Of a stretch of 64,000 nt of DNA, positions 42,025-53,505 are shown one piece after another. A program made the position numbers and the translations under genes. The stretch is from Escherichia coli (GTDB taxonomy: Bacteria; Pseudomonadota; Gammaproteobacteria; Enterobacterales; Enterobacteriaceae): assembly GCF_003018235.1 (NCBI RefSeq), contig NZ_CP027437.1; one strand, given 5' to 3'. The notes beneath the pieces were generated by a model that was not told the DNA's origin, did not search any database, and saw nothing but the letters and a program-made list of their open reading frames with translations. Every line of letters begins with the position of its first letter. Positions within the stretch are counted from its first letter, which is position 1.

Positions 42025-42110
42025 ATATGTCCTTTTATCATTAAACACAACCAACCAATTGATTTAATTAAATAAATCTCACTACAGAAAGTGCCAAAAA
42101 TCGCAAATTG

Positions 42111-42131
42111 ACTACACCATTAACTACACCG
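42111..42131. repeat. 21-bp direct repeat ACTACACCATTAACTACACCG (candidate att core, left copy)
   Basis: Perfect copy at 53485..53505; imperfect similarity continues for ~40 bp to the right of both copies. Confidence 0.7.
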
Positions 42132-42286
42132 TTCGGTGCACTGTATGAAACAACGTGGAACAAATAGACACAAGAAATATATGGGCGGGTAATTTATCTA
42201 TGTGAAAGCGTGCCGACTAATAGGGCGTTAATGTCGATATGGGGATCCCCATATCGGGAACCATACCGGAATTTTTGCCAGGTTAA

Positions 42287-42409
42287 ATGTTAACCGCTGC
42301 CCTGTTAACATTTTTACCAAAAAGGTAGTTAACATTTTTTGCACGCAACCATATGAATCATAAAGACAAAATCAACAACAACGCTTCATCAGGCAGTTAA
42401 CATGTTAAC
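42287..42409. promoter_or_regulatory. Cluster of GTTAACAT / ATGTTAAC half-sites, including the 14-bp palindrome GTTAACATGTTAAC (candidate iterons/operators or packaging site)
   Basis: Motif at 42287..42294, 42304..42311, 42328..42335 and 42396..42409 in a gene-free ~0.8-kb terminal region. Confidence 0.4.
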
Positions 42410-42833
42410 TACTACAAAACGGTAATTTTTTCTCTGCGTGAGAGTGGGCGCGGTGTCCGAATTGTTCGTTGTTCGTGGCTAACCGCTCCCCCCCCTATAC
42501 CGGATTTTTTTCCGGTTAATCTTTAATCAGGCTGGTGGGGGTTACATACCCTTGATCACCGTAATGATGATTCAGGTATGCACCTTTCCCCCCGATGGGG
42601 TAAAAGCATCAACCGTAACGGTAATATCTGCCTTGATGGTCTGCGTGGTCATTATGACCATTCAGCCAATGACCTTAATCAGAATTTTTCGCTAAAAAAT
42701 GATGTTGGCCACGTCGTCCGGAAAGCACAAAATCCCGTCGATTTTTAATTAACGGTTAAACCGCCTTTTTGTCACGGTGTGTCACTGGTTGCCACTCACC
42801 GTCACGATGTCCGCTCGCCTGGCTGTAAATTAA

Positions 42834-42852
42834 ACTACGAAAATTTCGTAGT
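42834..42852. promoter_or_regulatory. 19-bp perfect palindrome ACTACGAAAATTTCGTAGT (followed by GGGACTACAAGTCCC palindrome)
   Basis: Read directly; lies upstream of the left-end hypothetical gene. Confidence 0.4.
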
Positions 42853-42925
42853 TGTGAGGGACTACAAGTCCCGCGCAAATTTCCCCCGGTCCCCTCAAAT
42901 TGAGGTTGCCGGAAATATCAACCAG

Positions 42926-43207
42926 TTACCGCCGTAACCGCTCCAGCTTCTTCCAGTGGTACGTAATTTTCTCTTTCTCCCGGTACATCTCAACGCGGCG
43001 ATTGTAGGCCAGCATTTCCAGAACGCGGATCCGTATGTCGCGCATATCTACATCGTTAAGCTGGATACCATCACGGCGCATCACCTCAGCAACCACACGC
43101 GCATAATTTTCAGCGGTCACGCTGTCCGGCTGCGTTGCCTGTTCGTCAGCCTGCTGGCTGATTCCTGCAACGCGGTGGATTAATCGCAGTATTTCGGCTT
43201 CTGTCAT
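42926..43207 (-). CDS. Hypothetical protein (93 aa)
   Basis: ORF 42926..43219; probable start ATG 43207 (MTEAEILRLIHRVAG...) with G-rich SD. Confidence 0.5.
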   Translation of the reverse strand: MTEAEILRLIHRVAGISQQADEQATQPDSVTAENYARVVAEVMRRDGIQLNDVDMRDIRIRVLEMLAYNRRVEMYREKEKITYHWKKLERLRR

Positions 43208-43241
43208 TGTGCCCCCCATCGTTCTAATCGTCTGGTGTCGT

Positions 43242-43295
43242 CGGGTCCTTCCTGGAATTATGGCCCGTTACGGGGCGGCGACCTCGCGGTTTTTC
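43242..43295. repeat. Inverted repeat, left arm (terminator-like hairpin plus T-run)
   Basis: Reverse complement of 43887..43940; the inner 32 bp are identical. Confidence 0.75.
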
Positions 43296-43521
43296 ACTAT
43301 TTATGAGATTTTTTAGGGGGTGGTTGTTGTTTAATTGTTTGTCATATCTATTTGATAACTAAGTAAAAATAGAGAGCAATACAACAACCTGATAGTGTTT
43401 TTTGATGCTACAAATAAAAAAAATGCTAATTGAATCAAATAGTTTTACAAAAATACGTGGTTGTTGTATTGCGTATTTGATGGCGTAACAGAAAGTGATT
43501 TTGAACTTTGCTGTTCTGTGA

Positions 43522-43731
43522 CTACTGATTGTTCCATGCTGGCGCGGCGAACGCTTCGGCATGACGCCCCCCAGCCAGAAAACCAGCCATTTTATTTCGT
43601 GCTTTGCTCACATCTTCCGGTGAGTAGCCGTAAATCTGTAAACCTTCATTGAATCGATGTTCTGTTTCTTCACTTGAGTACTCGTCGCTCTCCGATGAAA
43701 TCAGCCTGGCAACTTCAGTCTGCGTAGCCAC
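43522..43731 (-). CDS. Hypothetical acidic protein (69 aa)
   Basis: ORF inside the inverted-repeat-bounded cassette, downstream of CATGTCCGG repeats. Confidence 0.4.
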   Translation of the reverse strand: MATQTEVARLISSESDEYSSEETEHRFNEGLQIYGYSPEDVSKARNKMAGFLAGGRHAEAFAAPAWNNQ

Positions 43732-43753
43732 TCCTCACCTCACAATCACGACA

Positions 43754-43860
43754 AAACCGGTCATGTCCGGTTTACATGTCTATTTTTTGCGCATGTCCGG
43801 TTCATGGAAAGCCTATTTTTATATTTTTCATATAGTTAACTTGCAGAGAAACCGGACATG
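43754..43860. promoter_or_regulatory. Three copies of the CATGTCCGGTT(T) motif, including the 20-bp palindrome AAACCGGTCATGTCCGGTTT (candidate operators)
   Basis: 43754..43773, 43792..43806 and 43848..43860 (inverted). Confidence 0.45.
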
Positions 43861-43886
43861 GATCCCGGAAAATTTTCATAAATAGC

Positions 43887-43940
43887 GAAAAACCGCGAGG
43901 TCGCCGCCCCGTAACGGGTCCATATGCCGGAAAGGACCCG
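43887..43940. repeat. Inverted repeat, right arm; acts as minus-strand intrinsic terminator of the capsid operon
   Basis: Hairpins followed (on the minus strand) by a T-run, 30 bp after the stop of the 137-aa gene. Confidence 0.75.
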
Positions 43941-43969
43941 TAAAAAAGCCGGATTTCTCCGGCCTTGTC

Positions 43970-44383
43970 TCAGATGGTTTTCAGTATGCGATCGATGTCG
44001 CCGTCATCGCCCGGGTTTCTGCCATCGTATGCCATGCCAGCTGATACGGCTTGCGGGCTGTGCATGTCCATAAAGTTTTCAAAGGCTGCGGTAAGCTCTG
44101 GTGCAACCTTCAGGCGTTCCTGCTCTATGGTCATGCTAAGGATGCTTTTAGCCGTACCAACATCGATACAAGGCACGTTTGCCATTGCACGTAACAGCGG
44201 CTGATAGTCGCCAGATTCATCAAGCGCCATAATCGCATCAGAGCGCGGCTTGTCCTTCTCTTCCAGGCTGTTAAGTTGATATACGGCCTCGTAGGTTGAT
44301 AAACCTCTGTCAGCCATTGCCCGCGCTTCGGCCTTAAATTTACTCGCCAGCGGTAGCGTCATGATGCTTTCATTCGTTGCCAT
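43970..44383 (-). CDS. Hypothetical protein (137 aa), capsid-module associated
   Basis: ORF directly downstream of the decoration-like gene. Confidence 0.5.
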   Translation of the reverse strand: MATNESIMTLPLASKFKAEARAMADRGLSTYEAVYQLNSLEEKDKPRSDAIMALDESGDYQPLLRAMANVPCIDVGTAKSILSMTIEQERLKVAPELTAAFENFMDMHSPQAVSAGMAYDGRNPGDDGDIDRILKTI

Positions 44384-44395
44384 CGTTACCCCTGC

Positions 44396-44731
44396 TTATC
44401 GCGCCAGCGGCTGAACGGATACGCCAGAACCCGCAAAGGCGGCGCATTTTTTCGCGTCGGTGTCGACGCTCTCAGGCCAGTTTACAGCGGCGATATTGAA
44501 TATCCCCGCCTTGTAGCACTGTGCTGATTTCTGCTTTGACGTGTCCACGGGGTACGACGTCAGGTAAACAGCCTTGCCCGATTCCTGACCATCCCACGGT
44601 TTAAACTCGCCATTGTCCGCCAGCATCAGCGGGGTAAATTCCTGAATAACGCCAGCATCAGCGGCAAAATGTACCAGCGTCGTGGCGACCTGCTGACTGC
44701 CTGCAAATAACTCAATGTATGGAGTGTCCAT
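44396..44731 (-). CDS. Lambda gpD-like head decoration protein
   Basis: 111 aa; aligns to recalled lambda gpD (TPLMLxxxxxxxxxWDG..., xYKxGxF, WPE, KKxxAFAGxxxS). Confidence 0.7.
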   Translation of the reverse strand: MDTPYIELFAGSQQVATTLVHFAADAGVIQEFTPLMLADNGEFKPWDGQESGKAVYLTSYPVDTSKQKSAQCYKAGIFNIAAVNWPESVDTDAKKCAAFAGSGVSVQPLAR

Positions 44732-44742
44732 AGAATTCCCCG

Positions 44743-45798
44743 TTAACCAATTTTGACGGTAACAAATTTGCGAATATCTGCCGGTACCGGCTGCGGTGCG
44801 CTGTGTGTCTGCACGTACTCAATCGCCGGATCGCCGTCTTCAATCCAGTTTTTCGGGTAGAACATGTTTTGCGTTGCGCCCGTTCTTACCGCTTCCTGAT
44901 CCATAATCGCACCATAGGCCACCAGCCCTTTATTGTTGGTGTTACCCAGGACCAGCAAATCAGGCTCAAGGAAATATTTTTCGGTGCCGTCGCTGTCAGT
45001 GTATTTGCCGGAATAGACGATAAGGGCCAGATCACCAAGATAGCCTTTAAAGCTCACCACTTCGCCCAGGTTTTTACAGGCCAGTTCGGCGGCGGATTCT
45101 GAACCACGGGAAAGATCGTACAGCTCACGGAATTTTTTAAAGCTGCGTAATGTGCGCCATACCTCAGCGCCCATAATCATGACGTTTGCGGGGCAACCAG
45201 CCTGATCAGCATAAAGCTCGATGTCATAGATTGGGTCGTGCATGTCTTTATCCTGCTCGGACCATTTTTTACCATTGGCCTGCTCTATGATGCAGTTTTC
45301 CGGTATTTTCCAGTCGATTTCATAGCGTTCTATGCCTTCGCCCTCAATGATGTTTTTTCCGGTCGTTACCGCATTCACCGCCAGCCATTCCACGCGTGCC
45401 TTAATGGCGTTTATCTGGCGGCGCACGTTGCCAGTAATCAGGCGCATGCGTCGGTATGTAGGGTCGTTAAGCTGTGCCGGATCTTCTCCAGCCATGCGCA
45501 TGATGGTTTTTGTTGGATCGATTTCATGCTTTGGCTTCATGTAGCCGGGTTTAATCGTGCTGGTTTCGTACCCTTTATCGCGCTGGACATGGCTACCCAC
45601 CATAGGCGAACAGAACGCTGACATCGTAACCTCTTCAATGTCCAGGGTGTCCAGCATGATGCTTTGGGTGTTGAAGGTCGCCACGTTCGGGAAAAACAGC
45701 GTGGTAAACAGCGGACTGAATTTAAATTCAGCAATATCCCCGCGATTCAGGTACGCGAAAAGCTGGTTAGTGTTAAGTGCCGTTGCTTTTCCTGCCAT
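44743..45798 (-). CDS. Lambda gpE-like major capsid protein
   Basis: 351 aa; conserved blocks KFxFxPLF, TPGYxKPKHE, DPxYRRxR, YPKNWxxxGDP relative to recalled lambda gpE. Confidence 0.8.
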   Translation of the reverse strand: MAGKATALNTNQLFAYLNRGDIAEFKFSPLFTTLFFPNVATFNTQSIMLDTLDIEEVTMSAFCSPMVGSHVQRDKGYETSTIKPGYMKPKHEIDPTKTIMRMAGEDPAQLNDPTYRRMRLITGNVRRQINAIKARVEWLAVNAVTTGKNIIEGEGIERYEIDWKIPENCIIEQANGKKWSEQDKDMHDPIYDIELYADQAGCPANVMIMGAEVWRTLRSFKKFRELYDLSRGSESAAELACKNLGEVVSFKGYLGDLALIVYSGKYTDSDGTEKYFLEPDLLVLGNTNNKGLVAYGAIMDQEAVRTGATQNMFYPKNWIEDGDPAIEYVQTHSAPQPVPADIRKFVTVKIG

Positions 45799-46004
45799 TA
45801 TTCACCCCCATGAGTCTGATTCATGCCCAGCGCCGCGCGTAAATAGGCGCGTACCTGCCAGCCTGTTGACGGCTCAACCATCGCCAGCGGATCAAGTCCT
45901 GCCGCAATGCCTGCTTTTACGTTCTGCTGGTGGCGTTCCTTGAGCGCCTCCACGATGTCGGGGCTTATGTACACCGAAACACCGCCTTTTTTCTCTTCTG
46001 CCAT
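45798..46004 (-). CDS. Hypothetical protein (68 aa) upstream of the capsid gene
   Basis: ORF with start/stop overlap with the capsid gene. Confidence 0.4.
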   Translation of the reverse strand: MAEEKKGGVSVYISPDIVEALKERHQQNVKAGIAAGLDPLAMVEPSTGWQVRAYLRAALGMNQTHGGE

Positions 46005-46166
46005 TGGTTGAAATTCCTCTTTAACAAAAAAAACATAACTGGATGAAAATCCAGTTGTGATTATAATTGTGATTGCACTTTGTGCAACGATATTGAGTTA
46101 TATTGCAAATTATGAAATGATTATCCCGATCATGTGTGTCAGTGCACCAAAAAAAACTCATATGCA

Positions 46167-46207
46167 AAAGCCCGATAAGACCCCTCTGACCTTATCGGGC
46201 TTTTTTA
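46167..46207. terminator. Bidirectional intrinsic terminator between replication and capsid modules
   Basis: Stem gcccgataag/cttatcgggc with TTTTTT on the plus strand and a T-run on the minus strand. Confidence 0.55.
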
Positions 46208-46409
46208 TCTGTCGGCAAAGACATCGAACAAAAATTAATCACAATCATCATCTTTTTTTCATCAATGCGATTAAAAACAATAAATTACGCTCATGATGAT
46301 GATGACGATAAAACCACAAAAATGCGCTTTTTTCCGCGCCACCCGTCCCGTGGATGGTCCCGCCAGCCAGGAGGACCCATAAAAAAGCCGGATTGCTCCG
46401 GCTCTGCTC

Positions 46410-46682
46410 TCACTTCTGCGGGTAGTTGCGCCATATTGTTTTCCCTATACCATCTATCCCCATTTGTTTTTCAGTGCGATCAACCGACCGTTTCAGCGCG
46501 CCAAAACCATCCGGCGGCTCCGGTGGCCTCTGTGCCTTCCTGGAACATTCCAGCCGTCGCATTGCCACCTGTGCGCGTTCCTTGTCTGTCTCCACCAGCT
46601 GCATGACTTCACCCCATCGCGCGGCCGCCCTCCGGTAAAAGCCTTTCGACTCGAGTTCCTCCGCTATGCGGTCATGTACCAT
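46410..46682 (-). CDS. PerC-like transcriptional activator
   Basis: ORF 46410..46802; probable start ATG 46682 (strong SD, 10 nt after the SSB stop); motif GFYRRAAARWGEVM resembles the PerC RGLWRRAADLW motif. Confidence 0.5.
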   Translation of the reverse strand: MVHDRIAEELESKGFYRRAAARWGEVMQLVETDKERAQVAMRRLECSRKAQRPPEPPDGFGALKRSVDRTEKQMGIDGIGKTIWRNYPQK

Positions 46683-46692
46683 CCTCACCCCC

Positions 46693-47103
46693 TCAGAACG
46701 GAATACCATCACCGTAAGGGTCATCGCCTCCCGCTGGTGGCTGATTACCCTGTGTGCCTGTGGTTGTGCGTCGGCTCCCGCCAGGACGTGCCGTACGGGC
46801 ACTGATTACGCTGTCTGCAATGACCTGATAACCCTGCCGCGTTTCGCCGTTCTGTCCGGTCCACTGGCTTACCTGCATGTTACCCGCCACGCTCACCAGT
46901 TCGCCTTTGTGGTGTTTTGCCAGTGCGTCGGCCTGTCTGCCAAACGCCAGGACGGATAACCACATCGTCGCCGTTCCGTCATCTGTCTGGCTGCATGGCA
47001 GGGGAACCGCCATACTCGCCATCGCCATTTGTGTCCCTTTGCTGGTGGTCTTTAACTGCGGGTCAGCCACCAGCCGTCCGTAAGCCGCTATCTGTGCTGT
47101 CAT
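46693..47103 (-). CDS. Single-stranded DNA-binding protein (SSB-like)
   Basis: 136 aa; OB-fold-like N-terminus and C-terminal acidic tail ...DDPYGDGIPF (SSB signature DDDIPF). Confidence 0.7.
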   Translation of the reverse strand: MTAQIAAYGRLVADPQLKTTSKGTQMAMASMAVPLPCSQTDDGTATMWLSVLAFGRQADALAKHHKGELVSVAGNMQVSQWTGQNGETRQGYQVIADSVISARTARPGGSRRTTTGTQGNQPPAGGDDPYGDGIPF

Positions 47104-47342
47104 GCTGTCTGCTCTCCGGTTTTAACGTTGATGGTTGTTACCTGTTCCGCTTCGGCAATCTCCCGTTCTGTCAGCGTGGCAAAGTTTGCGGCCGCTGTGG
47201 TCATGAATGCGCTTATCAGTTCTGGATGTTCCTTCGCGTATCCTTCCCGCGTGTGGCGGTCGATGATTTTTATCGCCACCCTCAGCCAGTGTTCTGTAAG
47301 GTCAATGGCGCGGTGATCTGTCTTTTTGTGGCTTACCTTCAT
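47100..47342 (-). CDS. Hypothetical protein (80 aa)
   Basis: 4-nt overlap with the SSB start. Confidence 0.45.
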   Translation of the reverse strand: MKVSHKKTDHRAIDLTEHWLRVAIKIIDRHTREGYAKEHPELISAFMTTAAANFATLTEREIAEAEQVTTINVKTGEQTA

Positions 47343-47345
47343 GAT

Positions 47346-47669
47346 TTACTCCAGGGTACCGCTATTGCTGCAGTCGTTAACCGGATACCAGGCAAATACC
47401 CATGACTCACCGCAGTGAACAAACTTCTTATCTGGCAGATAAAGGCACTCGAACATTCCCTCATCAGGACTATGCGGACTCACGCCAAGCTCACTGGTCA
47501 GCACGGGTAAGATTTCGCGGTAAGTATCCCCAGTGCCGAAATGGTTGACCTCACAAAGCGCCCATGCAGCAATTGGGCTATACCATTCCGTGCCGTCGTC
47601 GTCTTTGAACTTCGCCCACCAGCCAGGAAGGGCGGTTGATAAGCTCAGTGTTTCAATTTCAGATTTCAT
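47346..47669 (-). CDS. Hypothetical protein (about 107 aa)
   Basis: ORF 47346..47714; start placed at MKSEIETL. Confidence 0.45.
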   Translation of the reverse strand: MKSEIETLSLSTALPGWWAKFKDDDGTEWYSPIAAWALCEVNHFGTGDTYREILPVLTSELGVSPHSPDEGMFECLYLPDKKFVHCGESWVFAWYPVNDCSNSGTLE

Positions 47670-47915
47670 AAATTCACCTTCTGTATTTTGTCCTGCTGTT
47701 CGATTTTTATTCATTACTCACCACTCCTCACTTTTACTCCTCACTTTTTAAGTTGCCTCACTTCGTCTCACTTGAGATTTTCGTGTTTTCTATTAATTTG
47801 TTTTATAAGATTTTTTTCACTCCTCACTTTTGAGGATGTATACAGGTGAGAAAGTGAGTAATTGTGTTAATATTTTGTAAAAACCTCACCGTTACTCACT
47901 TTTGCTACTCACTTT

Positions 47916-49325
47916 TTACAGTGGTCCTACATCATCACCATCAATGTAAATCACGGCGTCTTTTTCCAGTTTGGCTAACCATCGCCGCATATTTTTCACG
48001 TCATACCCAAGCCGTTTCATGTCATCACGTAACAGCGCAATAGTGCACTTGTCGCCGTTCTGTGTGCGTGAACGTATGCACCCCCATAGCGCGGTATGGT
48101 TTTCCGTCTTGTTGCCTGCCTCCTCGATGCGCTCCAGTTCAACAGGAGGACGCGGCTTATCCACCACCACCAGCGACGTGATTAATTCGCCGTCAGCGTC
48201 GGTAAAAAGCTCCACTACCCGCAAATCGTAGGCGGCTTCTTTGAGTTCCTCTGCGTCCTTCATTTTTGTGCATGAGATAACCAGGGCTTCGCTTCCTGCG
48301 TCCTCTCTGCGTATCCGGTATTCAGCGTCCAGTGATGCACGGAATGCACTGGAACCACGCGCGCCCTTTGTTTCATCTTTGCCGGAATGGTGAACCACCA
48401 GCACCGTGGACCCTGTGCGTCGTTTCAGTTCGTCACATCCACGGATAAACGCCCCCATGTCACGGGAGTCATTTTCATCATTGCCGCCAAAGCAACGCGC
48501 CAGCGTATCCAGAATAATCATTCGAACAGGTTTACCCGTTTCCCGCTCCACCTGGCTGGCTGCGATAACCATTTCATCAACATCAAGCGGGGCCGCCGGA
48601 AAGACCGGACGGTTTACCAGATACAGATTTTTCACCTGTACATCGTGCACAACCTCCCAGGCTTTTATGCGACGCGGAACGCCTATACCACCTTCACCAA
48701 CCACATAGAGAACAGAACCATGTGCAACCCTGCGGCCTCCCCAGTGGCGGCCCGTTGAAATGTGACACGCCCACGAACCAGCAAGAAACGATTTATAGGA
48801 TCCGCTCGCTCCGTATATGCTGCACAGCGACGCCGCCGGAATAATGCCCTTAACCACGTAATCCAGTTGCGTGTCATATCCGGTAGATCCAACGCTCATC
48901 GGTAGCGTGGTGTTTCGTTGGGGGTTTTTTGCCATTACCAGGCTTTCCCCTCTCTCCCATGTCTCCCGCAACCGTGGTAGCTGGTCGGTCCATTTCTCCA
49001 GCAATTCGAAATTTTCAGAAAGCAGTCGCGCTTCCCTGACTCCGGCAATCGCCAGTTTCGTCGCGATGGTTAGCAACTGCTCTTCGTCAATATTTCCGGC
49101 GCGTATCACTGTGACCCTGTGCCGCCCCTCATCAACAATTTGCAGATTATCCAGTTCGCTTAACTGATAACGGCCCAGGTAAACGGGAGGCGTCGGGTCT
49201 CCCGCCTTTTTGGCCTGTGCAACGATGTAATGCTCTGCAAATGAGTGAGCATCAACACCCGCGAAAATAATCGCGTCGGTGTACTTATCTTTCGGTAATA
49301 GTTTTACGTTCGGTGCCAGTTTCAT
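47916..49325 (-). CDS. Replication protein with RecA-fold (RepA/AAA_25-type) helicase core, Pri-Rep-like
   Basis: 469 aa; Walker A-like GASGSYKS, Walker B-like MIILDTLAR, SGKDETKGARGSSA motif typical of RepA-type helicases of satellites and plasmids. Confidence 0.7.
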   Translation of the reverse strand: MKLAPNVKLLPKDKYTDAIIFAGVDAHSFAEHYIVAQAKKAGDPTPPVYLGRYQLSELDNLQIVDEGRHRVTVIRAGNIDEEQLLTIATKLAIAGVREARLLSENFELLEKWTDQLPRLRETWERGESLVMAKNPQRNTTLPMSVGSTGYDTQLDYVVKGIIPAASLCSIYGASGSYKSFLAGSWACHISTGRHWGGRRVAHGSVLYVVGEGGIGVPRRIKAWEVVHDVQVKNLYLVNRPVFPAAPLDVDEMVIAASQVERETGKPVRMIILDTLARCFGGNDENDSRDMGAFIRGCDELKRRTGSTVLVVHHSGKDETKGARGSSAFRASLDAEYRIRREDAGSEALVISCTKMKDAEELKEAAYDLRVVELFTDADGELITSLVVVDKPRPPVELERIEEAGNKTENHTALWGCIRSRTQNGDKCTIALLRDDMKRLGYDVKNMRRWLAKLEKDAVIYIDGDDVGPL

Positions 49326-49621
49326 TTTTTACCCCTGAATCCGTTAATCATGTTTTTCATCTTCTGAATATTGGCGCGGGCCTTCTCCCTGCTGGTGGGC
49401 TGGCTGCGTTGCGCTGCCTGTACCAGAGAAAAATCACGCCGGAACTGATAAACAGGCATCACGCAGTCATATTCGTAGCCTTCACGGCGGTAGGTTACGC
49501 GCCGTTCCTCCACGCCCTTGATCATTACCGTGCCGCCGTACTGGTCGCGGTAAATATCCCCGCGCATGAATTTAGTGCGAGTTTTGCCGCTGGCAGTTAA
49601 GCCAGAATATTTAAGTTTCAT
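49322..49621 (-). CDS. Hypothetical basic protein (99 aa)
   Basis: 4-nt overlap with the replication gene start. Confidence 0.45.
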   Translation of the reverse strand: MKLKYSGLTASGKTRTKFMRGDIYRDQYGGTVMIKGVEERRVTYRREGYEYDCVMPVYQFRRDFSLVQAAQRSQPTSREKARANIQKMKNMINGFRGKK

Positions 49622-49626
49622 TATTT

Positions 49627-50109
49627 TTATTCTCCGGTGTGGGGCGTTTTATTCTGTTCGCGTAATAACTCTTTTTCTCTTAAATTGAATTCAGCTACGT
49701 AATCGGCATAATCAGCGGTAATATTCAGTACATCCACTCCCGTTGCTTTATATTCTTTCATACCAAGTAAGAAAAAAGATGCCCTTATCAGTTCCGATAT
49801 TGATGAAAGCGCATCAGTCGCATCATCGGATAATCCTGAAAATTCCTGTTTCAGGGCATTAAAACGATCATCACGCATAACCCCCCCATTTTCACAATCA
49901 GCAATCAGGATAGCTTTGGCCTCATTCAGTGCCATATCAGCGGTAAGCTGTGCGTATGCCAGTGAATGCGGGATTATTGCCCCGGTATATTCCGTCTCTC
50001 TGGTAATGTGTTTTTCTGCGGTTGCTGCCGTGCATGAAATATCAATCAGCGCGTGCATTAGCGTTCTGATAGCTTCGGCGGCTGCGTCCGGACGGATGTT
50101 ATTGCACAT
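49627..50109 (-). CDS. Hypothetical protein (160 aa)
   Basis: ORF in the leftward operon. Confidence 0.45.
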   Translation of the reverse strand: MCNNIRPDAAAEAIRTLMHALIDISCTAATAEKHITRETEYTGAIIPHSLAYAQLTADMALNEAKAILIADCENGGVMRDDRFNALKQEFSGLSDDATDALSSISELIRASFFLLGMKEYKATGVDVLNITADYADYVAEFNLREKELLREQNKTPHTGE

Positions 50110-50716
50110 GTATCACCCCCTGACGAATACGGGCGGCGAATACAGCAACACAACCAGACGGGCAACGGCTACGCGCTTCGCGTTCCGTCCAGGCGGTGAC
50201 GTGGATGATTTGGGATTCTGACGCGCAAAAGATGATAAAGCGCCAGATAAAGGCAGTTTGAGAATGTACGAGGGTAGGGATAGTAGCCATGTTGGCAGCC
50301 TCCTTTATCGTTGGGATAACCCCACCGCCGGAGGTGGTAAGCTCGCTGGCGGTGGACTGTACGGAGTTACCACAACTGGCGATAAAGGAAACCAGCCCGA
50401 CCGAAGTCGGCCCCGTACAGCCCACCATTGTAAAGGTGTGCGTGTGCGCCGATACAAAAAAAGACGCGTGCGGCGTCTGTATCGCCTTTATCTCCAGCGG
50501 GGTGGTAATCCCGGCACCCGTTTTATGAGGTGCACGGGAATCATAGCCATTTCCACCAGTGGCGATCAACTGGTTTTTCTGGCGAGCTTCCTGTTCGCTG
50601 GTGGCCTCAATGGTAATCACGCGCGGTTGTGCCGTGCTCAGGGCGATAAAACGCCAGATGTATTTATTCAGGTTGTACGAGCCCCGCCCTTGCGGGTGTG
50701 TGGTATGATTTCTCAT
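50099..50716 (-). CDS. Uncertain ORF spanning a tandemly duplicated ~0.4-kb module
   Basis: Frame open from ATG 50716 (GAGG SD) to stop 50099; a second SD plus ATG at 50290 inside; DNA-level paralogy between ~50221..50340 and ~50619..50750. Confidence 0.3.
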   Translation of the reverse strand: MRNHTTHPQGRGSYNLNKYIWRFIALSTAQPRVITIEATSEQEARQKNQLIATGGNGYDSRAPHKTGAGITTPLEIKAIQTPHASFFVSAHTHTFTMVGCTGPTSVGLVSFIASCGNSVQSTASELTTSGGGVIPTIKEAANMATIPTLVHSQTAFIWRFIIFCASESQIIHVTAWTEREARSRCPSGCVAVFAARIRQGVIHVQ

Positions 50717-50813
50717 AGCTACCTCGATACTCTGGTTATCGTTGGTGGTTAGACGCCCTGCATGTGTTGCGAGCACTGCGGGGCGTTGCTTAATTTGAGT
50801 AACACCACTCAAA

Positions 50814-50895
50814 CTGTGCGCACAGATTAAAATTATGTATGCGCACACATCAATACTTAACATCTCGTTTTTTTTGCTGTATTGTGTGCGCCCAT
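50814..50895. promoter_or_regulatory. Operator cluster between divergent operons: palindrome CTGTGCGCACAG plus two related TGTGCGC sites
   Basis: 50814..50825 perfect 12-bp palindrome; 50835..50850 near-palindrome; about 50883..50893 third copy. Confidence 0.5.
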
Positions 50896-50921
50896 AAAGT
50901 CCATTTAAGTAAGGTGCATCA

Positions 50922-51119
50922 ATGTCTAGCGGTAACACAAACAACAAATCAGCAAAGAAAAATATTCGATTCCCACATGAGCTTATAGATGGAATTGATG
51001 CCAGCGTTGAACAAGAAAAATTAACTAATCCTAGTGCTAATTTTTCCGCATGGGTCTTGGATGCCTGTGGACGCAAATTAAAATATGAACAGCGCCGCAA
51101 GGCCAAAGAATCAGAATAA
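50922..51119 (+). CDS. Small ribbon-helix-helix-type DNA-binding protein (candidate island repressor)
   Basis: 65 aa; KKNIRFPHELIDGIDA...FSAWVLDACGRKL pattern; divergent from the replication operon. Confidence 0.5.
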   Translation: MSSGNTNNKSAKKNIRFPHELIDGIDASVEQEKLTNPSANFSAWVLDACGRKLKYEQRRKAKESE

Positions 51120-51176
51120 TTACTATCAGCGCCGTGGTGTGAGGTACTCCGGCGCATTGCTTTACAGGTACACACA

Positions 51177-51401
51177 ATGACCAAAGGCACATCATCACCG
51201 GAAAACGGCGAAATTACGCCAACATATGAAATTATCCGGCAAAGGCAGTCAGAAGCCTGCGCCAGACTTGAGGAAGAACTAACCAGAACAAAAATACCAC
51301 CAGCGCCGCGCTTAGCGCCACCAGAAAAATTTGCCCTTGAAGATTTTGTCGAGAAATACCCACGGCGGCTTAAATCTGGTAAAAACCGCCCGCCAGGCTG
51401 A
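51177..51401 (+). CDS. Hypothetical protein (74 aa)
   Basis: ORF downstream of the RHH gene. Confidence 0.4.
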   Translation: MTKGTSSPENGEITPTYEIIRQRQSEACARLEEELTRTKIPPAPRLAPPEKFALEDFVEKYPRRLKSGKNRPPG

Positions 51402-51665
51402 TAGCATTGTCCACCAGCAATAGAACGGTTATCATGCTCTGGCTTATGTTTGGGATCACATACACATAAGGTGCAGCGGGTTAATTGTTCAGAAAGGCGG
51501 TTCCATTTCGGGGCCGCTTTTTTTATGCCTGAAAAACCCCAATTTTGTTGTTTTCCAGTCTCACCAGGGCGAACGAATCCCCGCCCACATTCGGGCGCAT
51601 ATTCAATCTTCATGGTTATATCTCTGTATTAGTGGATGTGTGGCGGCTGCGTGCCGCCAGCGTGA

Positions 51666-51854
51666 TTAATGAACTGCCTTGCAGCTATCCTTCCAGGCCA
51701 GAACCTCGGATAAAGACCAGCCAACGGAACGACCGCCAAGTTTACGACGTGATGGGAATTGTCCGGCCTTTTCCAGGCGGTAGCGGCATGAGCGGCTAAG
51801 GCCTGTTAGCTTTTCGCATTCTTTTTCACGTATAAACCGATCAGTGCTTAACAC
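51666..51854 (-). CDS. AlpA-family excisionase / transcriptional activator
   Basis: 62 aa; LTGLSRSCRYRLEKAGQFPSRRKLGGRSVGWSLSEVLAW matches the AlpA helix-turn-helix pattern. Confidence 0.7.
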   Translation of the reverse strand: MLSTDRFIREKECEKLTGLSRSCRYRLEKAGQFPSRRKLGGRSVGWSLSEVLAWKDSCKAVH

Positions 51855-52228
51855 TATTGCCCCCTTTCGTTTCTTAAAGAGTTATTTCGTGTTCTATTGC
51901 GTTGGGATGTGTCTGATTGTGTCAGGATGATTCAGAGTTGGCAAATGTTGAGGTCGTATGGTTTACAGAAAGAGGAACAATCAGGATAAAATCATTTAAA
52001 TTCATGTTAATACAAAGGCATAAAATCTCGTTTTATGCCTTTTTTCTCACGTGTTAAAGCGTTATTCGCTAATGTATAAAAAACCAGTCACACAAATAAA
52101 ATCAGTCACTTATAAACCTGCGTACTTTTTCGCCTCTTGTTCGTGGTTGTTCCACGTTGTTTCACATTGTTCGCCGTTGTATCTGTGTGCTTATCCAGTA
52201 TGCGCATACTGAAAAAACACGAAAAAAA

Positions 52229-53476
52229 TTATTTTCTTCTGGCTGCTGGTAGTGCGGTTACGTTTTCTTGTGTTCCCGCCAGTATCCCTAACCGCTCCGT
52301 CCACATATCCAGCGCATTGCGTTTAGCATCCAGATAACGGGAATGATTATAAACTCGCTGCATTCCTGGCATCTGGTGGCCTGTAAGCTGCTCCACGACG
52401 TGAGGATCCACGCCTAAATCGTTCAGCATCGTTGTAAAGGTGCGCCGGATGTCATGTAGTGACCAGTGAGGGTGATTTAGCCTCCTGTGCGCTAATCTGC
52501 CGTACTGCGACACGCTTGTTTCCTGTTTCACTTCCCCCAGCAATAAGCCCGTGTTCCTGTTCTGCTCCACCAGCTGCGTGACGAACGGCAGTATTGCTTC
52601 CGGTATGGGCCGGAATATTGCCACCTTCGTTTTGCTGTGTTCTTTCGGCACGGTCCAGAGCATTTCGGTAAAATCCCACTCTCTGATCTCCGATAACCTC
52701 AGTTCTACCGTCCGGCATCCGAACACAATCAGGAGGCGGATTAACGCGATGTAGTAAGGGGAAAATATTTTTTTGTCCAGTGCCTGCAATAATTCGCCCA
52801 GTTCTTTGGTGCTTAAGACACGCTCGCTTATATCCGGTTTTTTCCCAACGTCCGCCACACTCATATCATCAAGAACGTTGCTGATTGCATAGCGCCGCCT
52901 CCTGCAGAACTTAAGCGCCTGTTTGCACGTCTGTAGCAAGAATCCGGCAGTAACAGGCGTTCGCTTTGCCACCTGGTCAAAACAGGCCAGCCAGTGCCGT
53001 AGCTCGCATTTATCCAGCGGCATAGCACCAATGTGCTGTATTACGTGATTATTAAGGCGCTTTTTCAGGGCGGCATAATCCACGCGATTTTCCTTTGCGT
53101 ACGACTCAAGCCAGTAGGTGAGCGCATCGCCAACCGTTACCGGCTTTAACGCTTCCTGTACGGTGTAATTCATTTCATGACGTGGATTTTTCCCCTCTGC
53201 CAGCCATGCGCGACACTGGGCGGCTTTTTCCCTGGCTGATTTCAGGCTCAGATCAGGATAATTTCCCAGCTTAATGCGTTCCGGTGGTGCCCCCCTTCCC
53301 GTTCCGGCCCTGTAAGTGAAATACCAGGTTAAAAGGCCACTGGTTGAATGCCTGACGCTCAGGTTTCCACCGTCATTAAGAAAGGCTGTTTTTTGGGCGG
53401 GTGTGCCGTTGATTTTCCTCAGCTGTGTATCGCTCAGTTTGTTAAGTGCTCTGCTCATAATTTTGATTCCGGTCAT
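52229..53476 (-). CDS. Tyrosine site-specific integrase (P4-type)
   Basis: ORF 52229..53479; R...HxxR...Y catalytic-region motifs (HDIRRTF, GHQMPGMQRVYNHSRY); adjacent to the right repeat. Confidence 0.8.
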   Translation of the reverse strand: MTGIKIMSRALNKLSDTQLRKINGTPAQKTAFLNDGGNLSVRHSTSGLLTWYFTYRAGTGRGAPPERIKLGNYPDLSLKSAREKAAQCRAWLAEGKNPRHEMNYTVQEALKPVTVGDALTYWLESYAKENRVDYAALKKRLNNHVIQHIGAMPLDKCELRHWLACFDQVAKRTPVTAGFLLQTCKQALKFCRRRRYAISNVLDDMSVADVGKKPDISERVLSTKELGELLQALDKKIFSPYYIALIRLLIVFGCRTVELRLSEIREWDFTEMLWTVPKEHSKTKVAIFRPIPEAILPFVTQLVEQNRNTGLLLGEVKQETSVSQYGRLAHRRLNHPHWSLHDIRRTFTTMLNDLGVDPHVVEQLTGHQMPGMQRVYNHSRYLDAKRNALDMWTERLGILAGTQENVTALPAARRK

Positions 53477-53484
53477 CACAATTA

Positions 53485-53505
53485 ACTACACCATTAACTA
53501 CACCG
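53485..53505. repeat. 21-bp direct repeat ACTACACCATTAACTACACCG (candidate att core, right copy)
   Basis: Identical to 42111..42131; preceded by an extra ATTAACTACACC unit. Confidence 0.7.

Follow-up and report, generated by a model that had tools for sequence, protein, structure and literature searches.

Two adjacent genes in the window, which is the whole stretch of 64,000 nucleotides of Escherichia coli DNA analysed here, are with good confidence the ssb and the pchE-type perC of a PICI of the EcCICFT073 family located at phoQ-roxA, with the SSB serving replication of the island and the PerC-like protein acting as an accessory regulator. Family membership, orthology, synteny and purifying selection were computed here; the roles of the SSB and of the PerC-like protein are those that we infer. 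As a discovery the ssb/perC pair matters little, and its practical use lies in the corrections that follow for PchE, for RgdR and for the mosaic island. The two genes are as follows:

46693..47103, minus strand: ssb, single-stranded-DNA-binding protein of 136 aa (Pfam SSB, TIGR00621 and PDB matches)
46410..46682, minus strand: perC-like gene, pchE orthologue (group-3 PerC homologue) of 90 aa (Pfam PerC, full profile)

The island and its ori-proximal operon

A sequence-only reading had described both genes as island-encoded, and both were indeed found inside an island of 11.4 kb, whose main features are the following:

42106..53505, no strand assigned: whole island, ~11.4 kb, with the imperfect direct repeat AATTRACTACACCATTAACTACACCG at 42106 and 53480, between phoQ and roxA
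52229..53479, minus strand: tyrosine integrase (Pfam Phage_integrase and Arm-DNA-bind_3)
51666..51854, minus strand: alpA regulator (Pfam Phage_AlpA, E=5e-18)
49322..49621, minus strand: RgdR orthologue (DUF4222, E=2.4e-24; 90% identical to ECs1581)
47916..49325, minus strand: replication protein of 469 aa, RepA-type helicase (AAA_25) without a primase domain (Pfam AAA_25, E=9e-42)
47717..47923, no strand assigned: iterated repeats of the direct-repeat families D3 and D4, presumed island origin, adjoining the replication gene
47346..47714, minus strand: 122-aa gene (ORF list; phrog_27268)
47100..47342, minus strand: 80-aa gene, ECs1586 homologue (phrog_1231)
46381..46402, minus strand: intrinsic terminator, GCCGG-AGCAAT-CCGGC then T6, read from the sequence
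43970..46004, minus strand: morphogenesis operon with a 68-aa gene, lambda E-like major capsid, D-like decoration and 137-aa protein (Pfam Phage_cap_E, HDPD)

The flanks of the island are E. coli core chromosome, with phoP, phoQ and purB on one side and roxA and pepT on the other, and the first 25 kb of the window were 99.3% identical to E. coli chromosomes. All main island genes are on the minus strand, where they run in the order integrase, AlpA, C4/isrK region, DUF4222, AAA_25 helicase, iterons, 122-aa gene, 80-aa gene, ssb and perC, followed past perC by the terminator, an AT-rich gap, the 68-aa gene, capsid, decoration, the 137-aa gene and two cosN sites. The hallmarks of a PICI were thus present, namely integrase and AlpA at one end, an own replication gene with adjacent iterons, a size within the usual ~10–15 kb and a specific att site. 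Homologues of the replication protein are named 'helicase RepA family protein' in RefSeq, and the position of the repeats fits the PICI ori described in PMC6092414. The morphogenesis proteins were 95–98% identical to c1499/c1500 of CFT073 and the products of neighbouring genes, and the lambda cosN 12-mer GGGCGGCGACCT was found in two exact, inverted copies, 43273-43284 (+) and 43898-43909 (−), which correspond to cos1 and cos2 of EcCICFT073. Surveys of ORFs and Pfam domains found no tail or lysis genes in the island. Judged by its sequence, the island can be assigned as an allelic variant of the prototype PICI EcCICFT073, at the same site as Sp7/OI-51 (EcCIEDL933) of O157.

Helper-phage induction, replication and high-frequency transfer were demonstrated for EcCICFT073 with lambda and phage 80 (PMC6092414, PMC6739421), and RppA redirects the helper terminase, Rpp proteins being ~139–145 aa long, with an N-terminal wHTH that the published structure requires (PMC6739421). 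The RppA homologue in the window (43506-43731, −) is N-terminally truncated, with only residues ~78–144 of the 145-aa CFT073 c1503 detectable by tblastn; its wHTH domain is missing and the region between the cos sites is rearranged as compared with CFT073. Since the homologue is without this N-terminal domain, the island is perhaps impaired in packaging redirection, and may be defective in packaging hijack. A mosaic PICI of this kind, in which the replication module has been swapped and Rpp is truncated, may be poorly mobilisable. Assignment of Rpp to 42926-43219 was discarded, because RppA corresponds to the 145-aa CFT073 gene according to both the description in PMC6739421 and tblastn.

Above the Rfam gathering score, we found a C4 antisense RNA (50345-50432, −, 78 bits) and isrK (50457-50533, −, 63.5 bits), both inside a spurious 504-aa ORF (50099-51613) that also has an Ash-family Pfam match. 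The C4 and isrK matches suggest that the island has an RNA immunity region like those of P1/P4.

The genes ssb and perC are the last two of a compact operon made up of the 122-aa gene, the 80-aa gene, ssb and perC, which runs from beside the presumed replication origin of the island to an intrinsic terminator. The stop of the 80-aa gene overlaps the ssb start (ATGA), and its product was 82% identical to Sakai ECs1586 and 86% to that of the CFT073 gene. A gap of 3 nt separates the 122-aa gene from the 80-aa gene downstream of it, an order that recurs in three related islands (L005, L007 and L008), and in this island the 122-aa gene probably belongs to the same operon. The terminator lies 8 nt past the perC stop, where it closes the ori-proximal operon, and it is conserved in relatives, including one without perC; it was not reported by a consensus scan. 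The terminators of the capsid operon (43933-43963) and of the ssb-perC operon (46372-46402) are 31-nt copies with 94% identity. In O157, RACE and RNA-seq showed that pchE is co-transcribed with the upstream ECs1586, the first gene, and ECs1587, the ssb (PMC7369912); uninduced cells make this ECs1586-ssb-pchE transcript, and SOS induction lowers its level. The pchE transcription start mapped in Sakai was not carried over to the window, because the upstream regions are not homologous.

Just downstream of perC, the intergenic block has a GC content of 36%, as compared with ~50–60% in the flanking genes. The non-coding block 46010-46210, which comprises ~200 nt and lies upstream of the capsid operon, was nearly invariant in four islands and contains a perfect TATAAT (46060-46065), TTGcac (46082-46087) and the palindrome TTGCACaaaGTGCAA. 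The inverted repeat AACTGGAT/ATCCAGTT surrounds the place where transcription would be expected to start, and 46170-46200 can form a bidirectional hairpin. This candidate promoter of the capsid operon was read by eye and was not reported by the consensus promoter scan, because its −35 element fits only 3 of 6 positions. The plus strand of 46050-46215 folds with z=-3.5 and gave a weak Rfam match to STnc50 (E=0.053), and an antisense sRNA from this strand is possible.

The SSB and PerC-like proteins

The identification of the first gene as an SSB was borne out by profile searches, in which its product matched Pfam SSB (PF00436) over residues 5–99 with E=8.4e-17 (61.6 bits, cut-off 26) and TIGR00621 with 57.9 bits, above the cut-off of 53.95. 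A PDB sequence search returned 25 solved SSB sequences, among them E. coli SSB (1eqq). The OB fold covers ~residues 1–100, and a short linker rich in Arg, Gly and Pro then leads to the tip DDPYGDGIPF; over the OB fold, the pairwise alignment with E. coli SSB gave 26% identity. Residues W48, F54 and W80 align with the E. coli stacking residues W54, F60 and W88, while W40 of E. coli SSB has no counterpart, the loop at this place being shortened. In E. coli SSB the IPF tip recruits partner proteins. The C-terminal tail of the island SSB reads ...GGDDPYGDGIPF, and IPF forms the C-terminal end of 104 of the 110 full-length SSB homologues, the most frequent tail among them being GGDDPYGDDIPF (54/110). 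The sequence-only reading had called this a canonical acidic tail, which holds for the terminal IPF, canonical and conserved as it is, but less so for the acidic run, which is weaker and has fewer acidic residues than the DFDDDIPF of E. coli.

The island SSB was 82% identical to both the CFT073 SSB and Sakai ECs1587. Close relatives were absent from 50,697 phage records, where the best match was an uncultured phage contig from human faeces with 37% identity and the remaining top matches were mostly Firmicute phages. In comparison with three homologous islands, both the ssb and the perC-like gene are under purifying selection (dN/dS 0.16–0.47), with values of 0.16–0.22 for ssb.

For the second gene, the listed ORF (46410-46802, −) has a GTG start and 130 aa, and Pfam PerC (PF06069) matched only residues 41–129 of it, with E=1.1e-37 (128.6 bits, cut-off 22.6), spanning profile positions 1–89 of 90. 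Because the profile covers only these residues, the true start is placed at the ATG at 46682, which lies 10 nt past the ssb stop, with GGGGGTGAGG in front of it. The RefSeq homologues (AR_0085, Sakai) are annotated from the same ATG and have 90 aa, and the 130-aa GTG ORF was rejected as an over-extension on both grounds. Positions 46410 and 47103, between which the sequence-only reading had placed its SSB and PerC-like protein, coincide exactly with the perC stop and the ssb start, and the match to the whole profile upheld its PerC assignment.

The PerC-like protein also matched phrog_994 (E=3e-42) and was 81% identical to Sakai PchE (ECs1588), 73% to the CFT073 copy, 40% to EPEC PerC and 41% to PchA. 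By identity and by its same position after ssb at roxA-phoQ, it is assigned to group 3 of the PerC homologues as the orthologue of PchE. The predicted structure (AF2) is all-helical with a pLDDT of 85.7, and a recognisable DNA-binding fold is absent from this small protein. It keeps the N-terminal motif D..A..LE..G.(Y/W)RRAA.RW, common to the PerC-family activators. The family is small, for when 1.84 billion proteins were clustered at 50%, 238 representatives belonged to it, and PerC was present in seven of the 50,697 phage records, in all of them with at most 40% identity. No NCBIfam model matched the PerC-like protein, and the PDB sequence search with it returned nothing meaningful. The ANR-family identity proposed for EcCIMP1_025 found no support here, Pfam giving only PerC at E up to 0.1. 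Inside the ssb and perC-like genes Rfam gave nothing credible, the sole match being a snoRNA at chance level (E=0.39).

Roles of the two proteins and alternative explanations

Of 5426 complete E. coli genomes, 1782 contain SSB-like DNA and 808 contain perC-like DNA of the clade seen here, and the stretch comprising the perC-distal intergenic region, perC, ssb and the 80-aa gene was contiguous at a coverage of at least 80% in 524 genomes. At the operon end, perC behaves as an accessory cassette, because the modules assort: in L005 a 99%-identical PerC comes after the same helicase-SSB module and before a protease-capsid fusion gene, in L006 a 99%-identical PerC comes after a primase and a homologue of the 80-aa gene, without ssb, and in RM10466 ssb is followed directly by the terminator, without perC.

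The ssb gene lies just downstream of the presumed origin and the replication gene, and family membership together with this position indicates that the SSB most likely supports replication of the island. It would coat the single strands that arise once the island helicase, upon induction by a helper phage, has opened the iteron origin and, via its conserved ...D-x-I-P-F tip, would borrow primase, polymerase or other partners of the host SSB, which would matter especially here, because the replication protein is without a primase domain. The O157 transcript, on in uninduced cells and down on SOS, behaves otherwise than a pure replication function would lead one to expect. In the literature searched, we found no experimental study on this island or on the role of any PICI SSB.

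The PerC-like protein would be the product of an accessory gene, not of a core satellite gene, and most likely acts as an accessory anti-silencing regulator. Over-expression of PchE represses csgD, curli, biofilm and HEp-2 adhesion and induces the flagellar regulon and motility, and ler and eae are among the genes under its control (PMC7369912, PMC6265319). Like PchE, the island protein probably alters host transcription of surface and motility genes instead of activating the LEE. The likely route would be a disturbance of H-NS-type silencing complexes, by analogy with the paralogue PchA (41% identical), which acts by H-NS anti-silencing, displacing H-NS/StpA/Hha complexes (PMC4764244), a mechanism demonstrated for PchA and not for PchE. 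Host effects of the PerC-like protein are plausible, and activation of the LEE is unlikely.

Seven distant representatives of the PerC family, with 34–49% identity, were compared by genomic context. Two of the seven genes lie directly after an SSB gene in P4/PICI-like elements (PerC 34–43% identical), and three (L014, L018 and L019; 37–49% identical) close chaperone-usher fimbrial operons at their 3' end, which fits a family-wide link of PerC to the regulation of adhesins and surface structures. At two of these fimbrial loci (L018 and L019) the PerC-family gene follows an EAL-domain gene, and in L018 it adjoins a CaiF/GrlA-family gene. The adjacency of SSB and PerC in very distant relatives hints at a functional link that reading perC as an accessory gene leaves unexplained. 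Because this adjacency survives where PerC is only 34–43% identical, the 80-aa gene, ssb and perC might form an ancient, co-inherited satellite module, with the home function of the PerC family in satellite biology, coupled to replication, and the EPEC/EHEC activators as later co-options; PerC would then, for example, anti-silence the satellite's own AT-rich late promoter, or helper or host genes. We consider this rather unlikely.

It is likewise unlikely that the PerC-like protein has primarily a satellite function, relieving the silencing of the AT-rich capsid/packaging promoter or activating it, with the host phenotypes as side effects. In all related islands examined, no gene stands between perC and the morphogenesis operon, whether this codes for an E-like capsid, a protease-capsid fusion or a full cfPICI head module, and the downstream block, with its 36% GC, high conservation, perfect −10 element and palindromes, together with the anti-silencing activity of PchA on H-NS and the SSB-PerC adjacency in the P4/PICI-like elements, would agree with such a function. 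However, RM10466 shares the conserved promoter block and the capsid operon but lacks perC, in elements of the P0177 type perC closes the island and no capsid operon follows, pchE mRNA falls and does not rise on SOS and prophage induction in O157, and other members of the family are found in fimbrial operons and not in satellites.

The sequence-only reading had proposed that an island-borne PerC homologue could cross-activate chromosomal virulence regulons and so rewire host gene expression. Rewiring of host expression is a reasonable expectation, but its expected direction is not activation of a virulence regulon, and we regard it as very unlikely that the island protein activates the LEE as EPEC PerC and PchA/B/C do. 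It is a true PerC-family member that keeps the N-terminal motif of the activators, and some PICI-coded PerC homologues do activate the LEE (PMC6092414). On the other side, it stands at 81% identity to PchE as against 40–41% to PerC/PchA; PchE opposes the LEE-activating group 1 (PMC7369912, PMC6265319); and EcCIMP1_025, a related PICI PerC-like protein ~40% identical to those of CFT073 and EDL933, represses LEE1 in C. rodentium (PMC11773190). As far as the work of Porter 2005 is cited in PMC11773190, LEE1-lacZ fusions did not respond to the PerC-like genes of EcCIEDL933 and EcCICFT073, and there is no LEE in the 64-kb window. Counting a PchE-type allele among the LEE activators would hence be a mistake.

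Within the island, it is instead the RgdR homologue near the PerC-like gene whose orthologues are documented activators of LEE1. RgdR of OI-51 activates LEE1 and type III secretion, while the R20C variant does not (Flockhart et al., PMC3378721), and the R20-G21-D22 motif is intact in the orthologue at 49322-49621. As far as homology can tell, the link of the island to a virulence regulon is this gene and not the PerC-like gene.

It is highly improbable that the SSB works in interference or counter-defence, by itself or jointly with the 80-aa protein, for instance as a decoy titrating host or phage SSB partners. Although it belongs to a distinct lineage (best match 37% among the 50,697 phage records), keeps the partner-binding IPF tip at only 26% identity to host SSB and is reported as transcribed in uninduced O157 cells, only c1503 (rppA) inhibited lambda or phage 80 when the post-ori genes of EcCICFT073 were cloned singly (PMC6739421), ssb is absent from some islands, and PADLOC gave zero matches among eight island proteins.

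Comparison with known systems

A replication SSB and an accessory PchE-type regulator, the reading that we prefer, can be set beside the known proteins and islands. Like the SSB of the island, the chromosomal SSB of E. coli has an OB fold, the W54/F60/W88 equivalents, a flexible linker and a C-terminal ...IPF tip. They differ in length (178 aa in E. coli, 136 aa in the island), in the linker, which is much shorter and Arg-rich in the island protein, in the tip (DFDDDIPF as compared with DDPYGDGIPF) and in the L23-loop region (W40), shortened in the island protein. EPEC PerC (pMAR2) and EHEC PchA/B/C belong to the same Pfam family as the PerC-like protein and have the same conserved N-terminal helix motif, but they are 40–41% identical to it and are group 1 activators of LEE1 carried by a plasmid or lambdoid prophages, whereas the island protein belongs by homology to group 3, whose members are reported not to activate the LEE, and is carried by a satellite.

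Among the islands, EcCICFT073 (E. coli CFT073, NC_004431 1377930-1388654) shares the site, the overall gene order and the two lambda-type cos sites, with identities of 96% for the capsid, 98% for the decoration protein, 97% for the integrase, 82% for the SSB and 73% for PerC. It has a D5-type primase where the window has the RepA-type helicase, the replication module having been swapped; its PerC copy has only 82 aa and diverges over the C-terminal third; and its c1503 (RppA) has 145 aa, while the homologue in the window is truncated. Swapping of the replication module between islands that are otherwise nearly identical and share the att site was seen on comparing 47916-49325 (−) of the window with 7242-8996 of L004 and 5101-7233 of L009, CFT073 and Sakai having D5/primase-type proteins, and the ssb-perC module is common to classical PICIs, cfPICIs and the protease-capsid-fusion type.

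The ssb/perC pair was already known, from OI-51/Sp7 in 2012 and from PICIs in 2018, and RefSeq names both genes in hundreds of genomes. Flockhart et al. 2012 (PMC3378721) listed a putative ssDNA-binding protein and PerC (PchE) in OI-51, the ssDNA-binding gene being conserved in CFT073 and ED1a, and Fillol-Salom et al. 2018 (PMC6092414) reported PerC alleles in E. coli PICIs and, in EcCICFT073, the capsid c1499 and the decoration protein c1500. The Sakai annotation gives ECs1587 as 'single stranded DNA-binding protein' and ECs1588 as 'transcriptional regulator PchE'. Sp7 (OI-51, CP-933C or EcCIEDL933, a capsid-forming PICI of O157:H7 Sakai) occupies the same roxA-phoQ site with an integrase 98.5% identical, and its order of 80-aa gene (ECs1586), ssb (ECs1587) and pchE (ECs1588) is that of the window, with identities of 82%, 82% and 81%, respectively, and equal lengths of 136 aa for the SSB and 90 aa for PerC. 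In Sp7 the replication gene is of the primase type and the head/terminase module is complete (portal, protease, TerS and TerL), unlike in the window, which has the RepA-type helicase and only the E-like capsid, the decoration protein and a few small genes.
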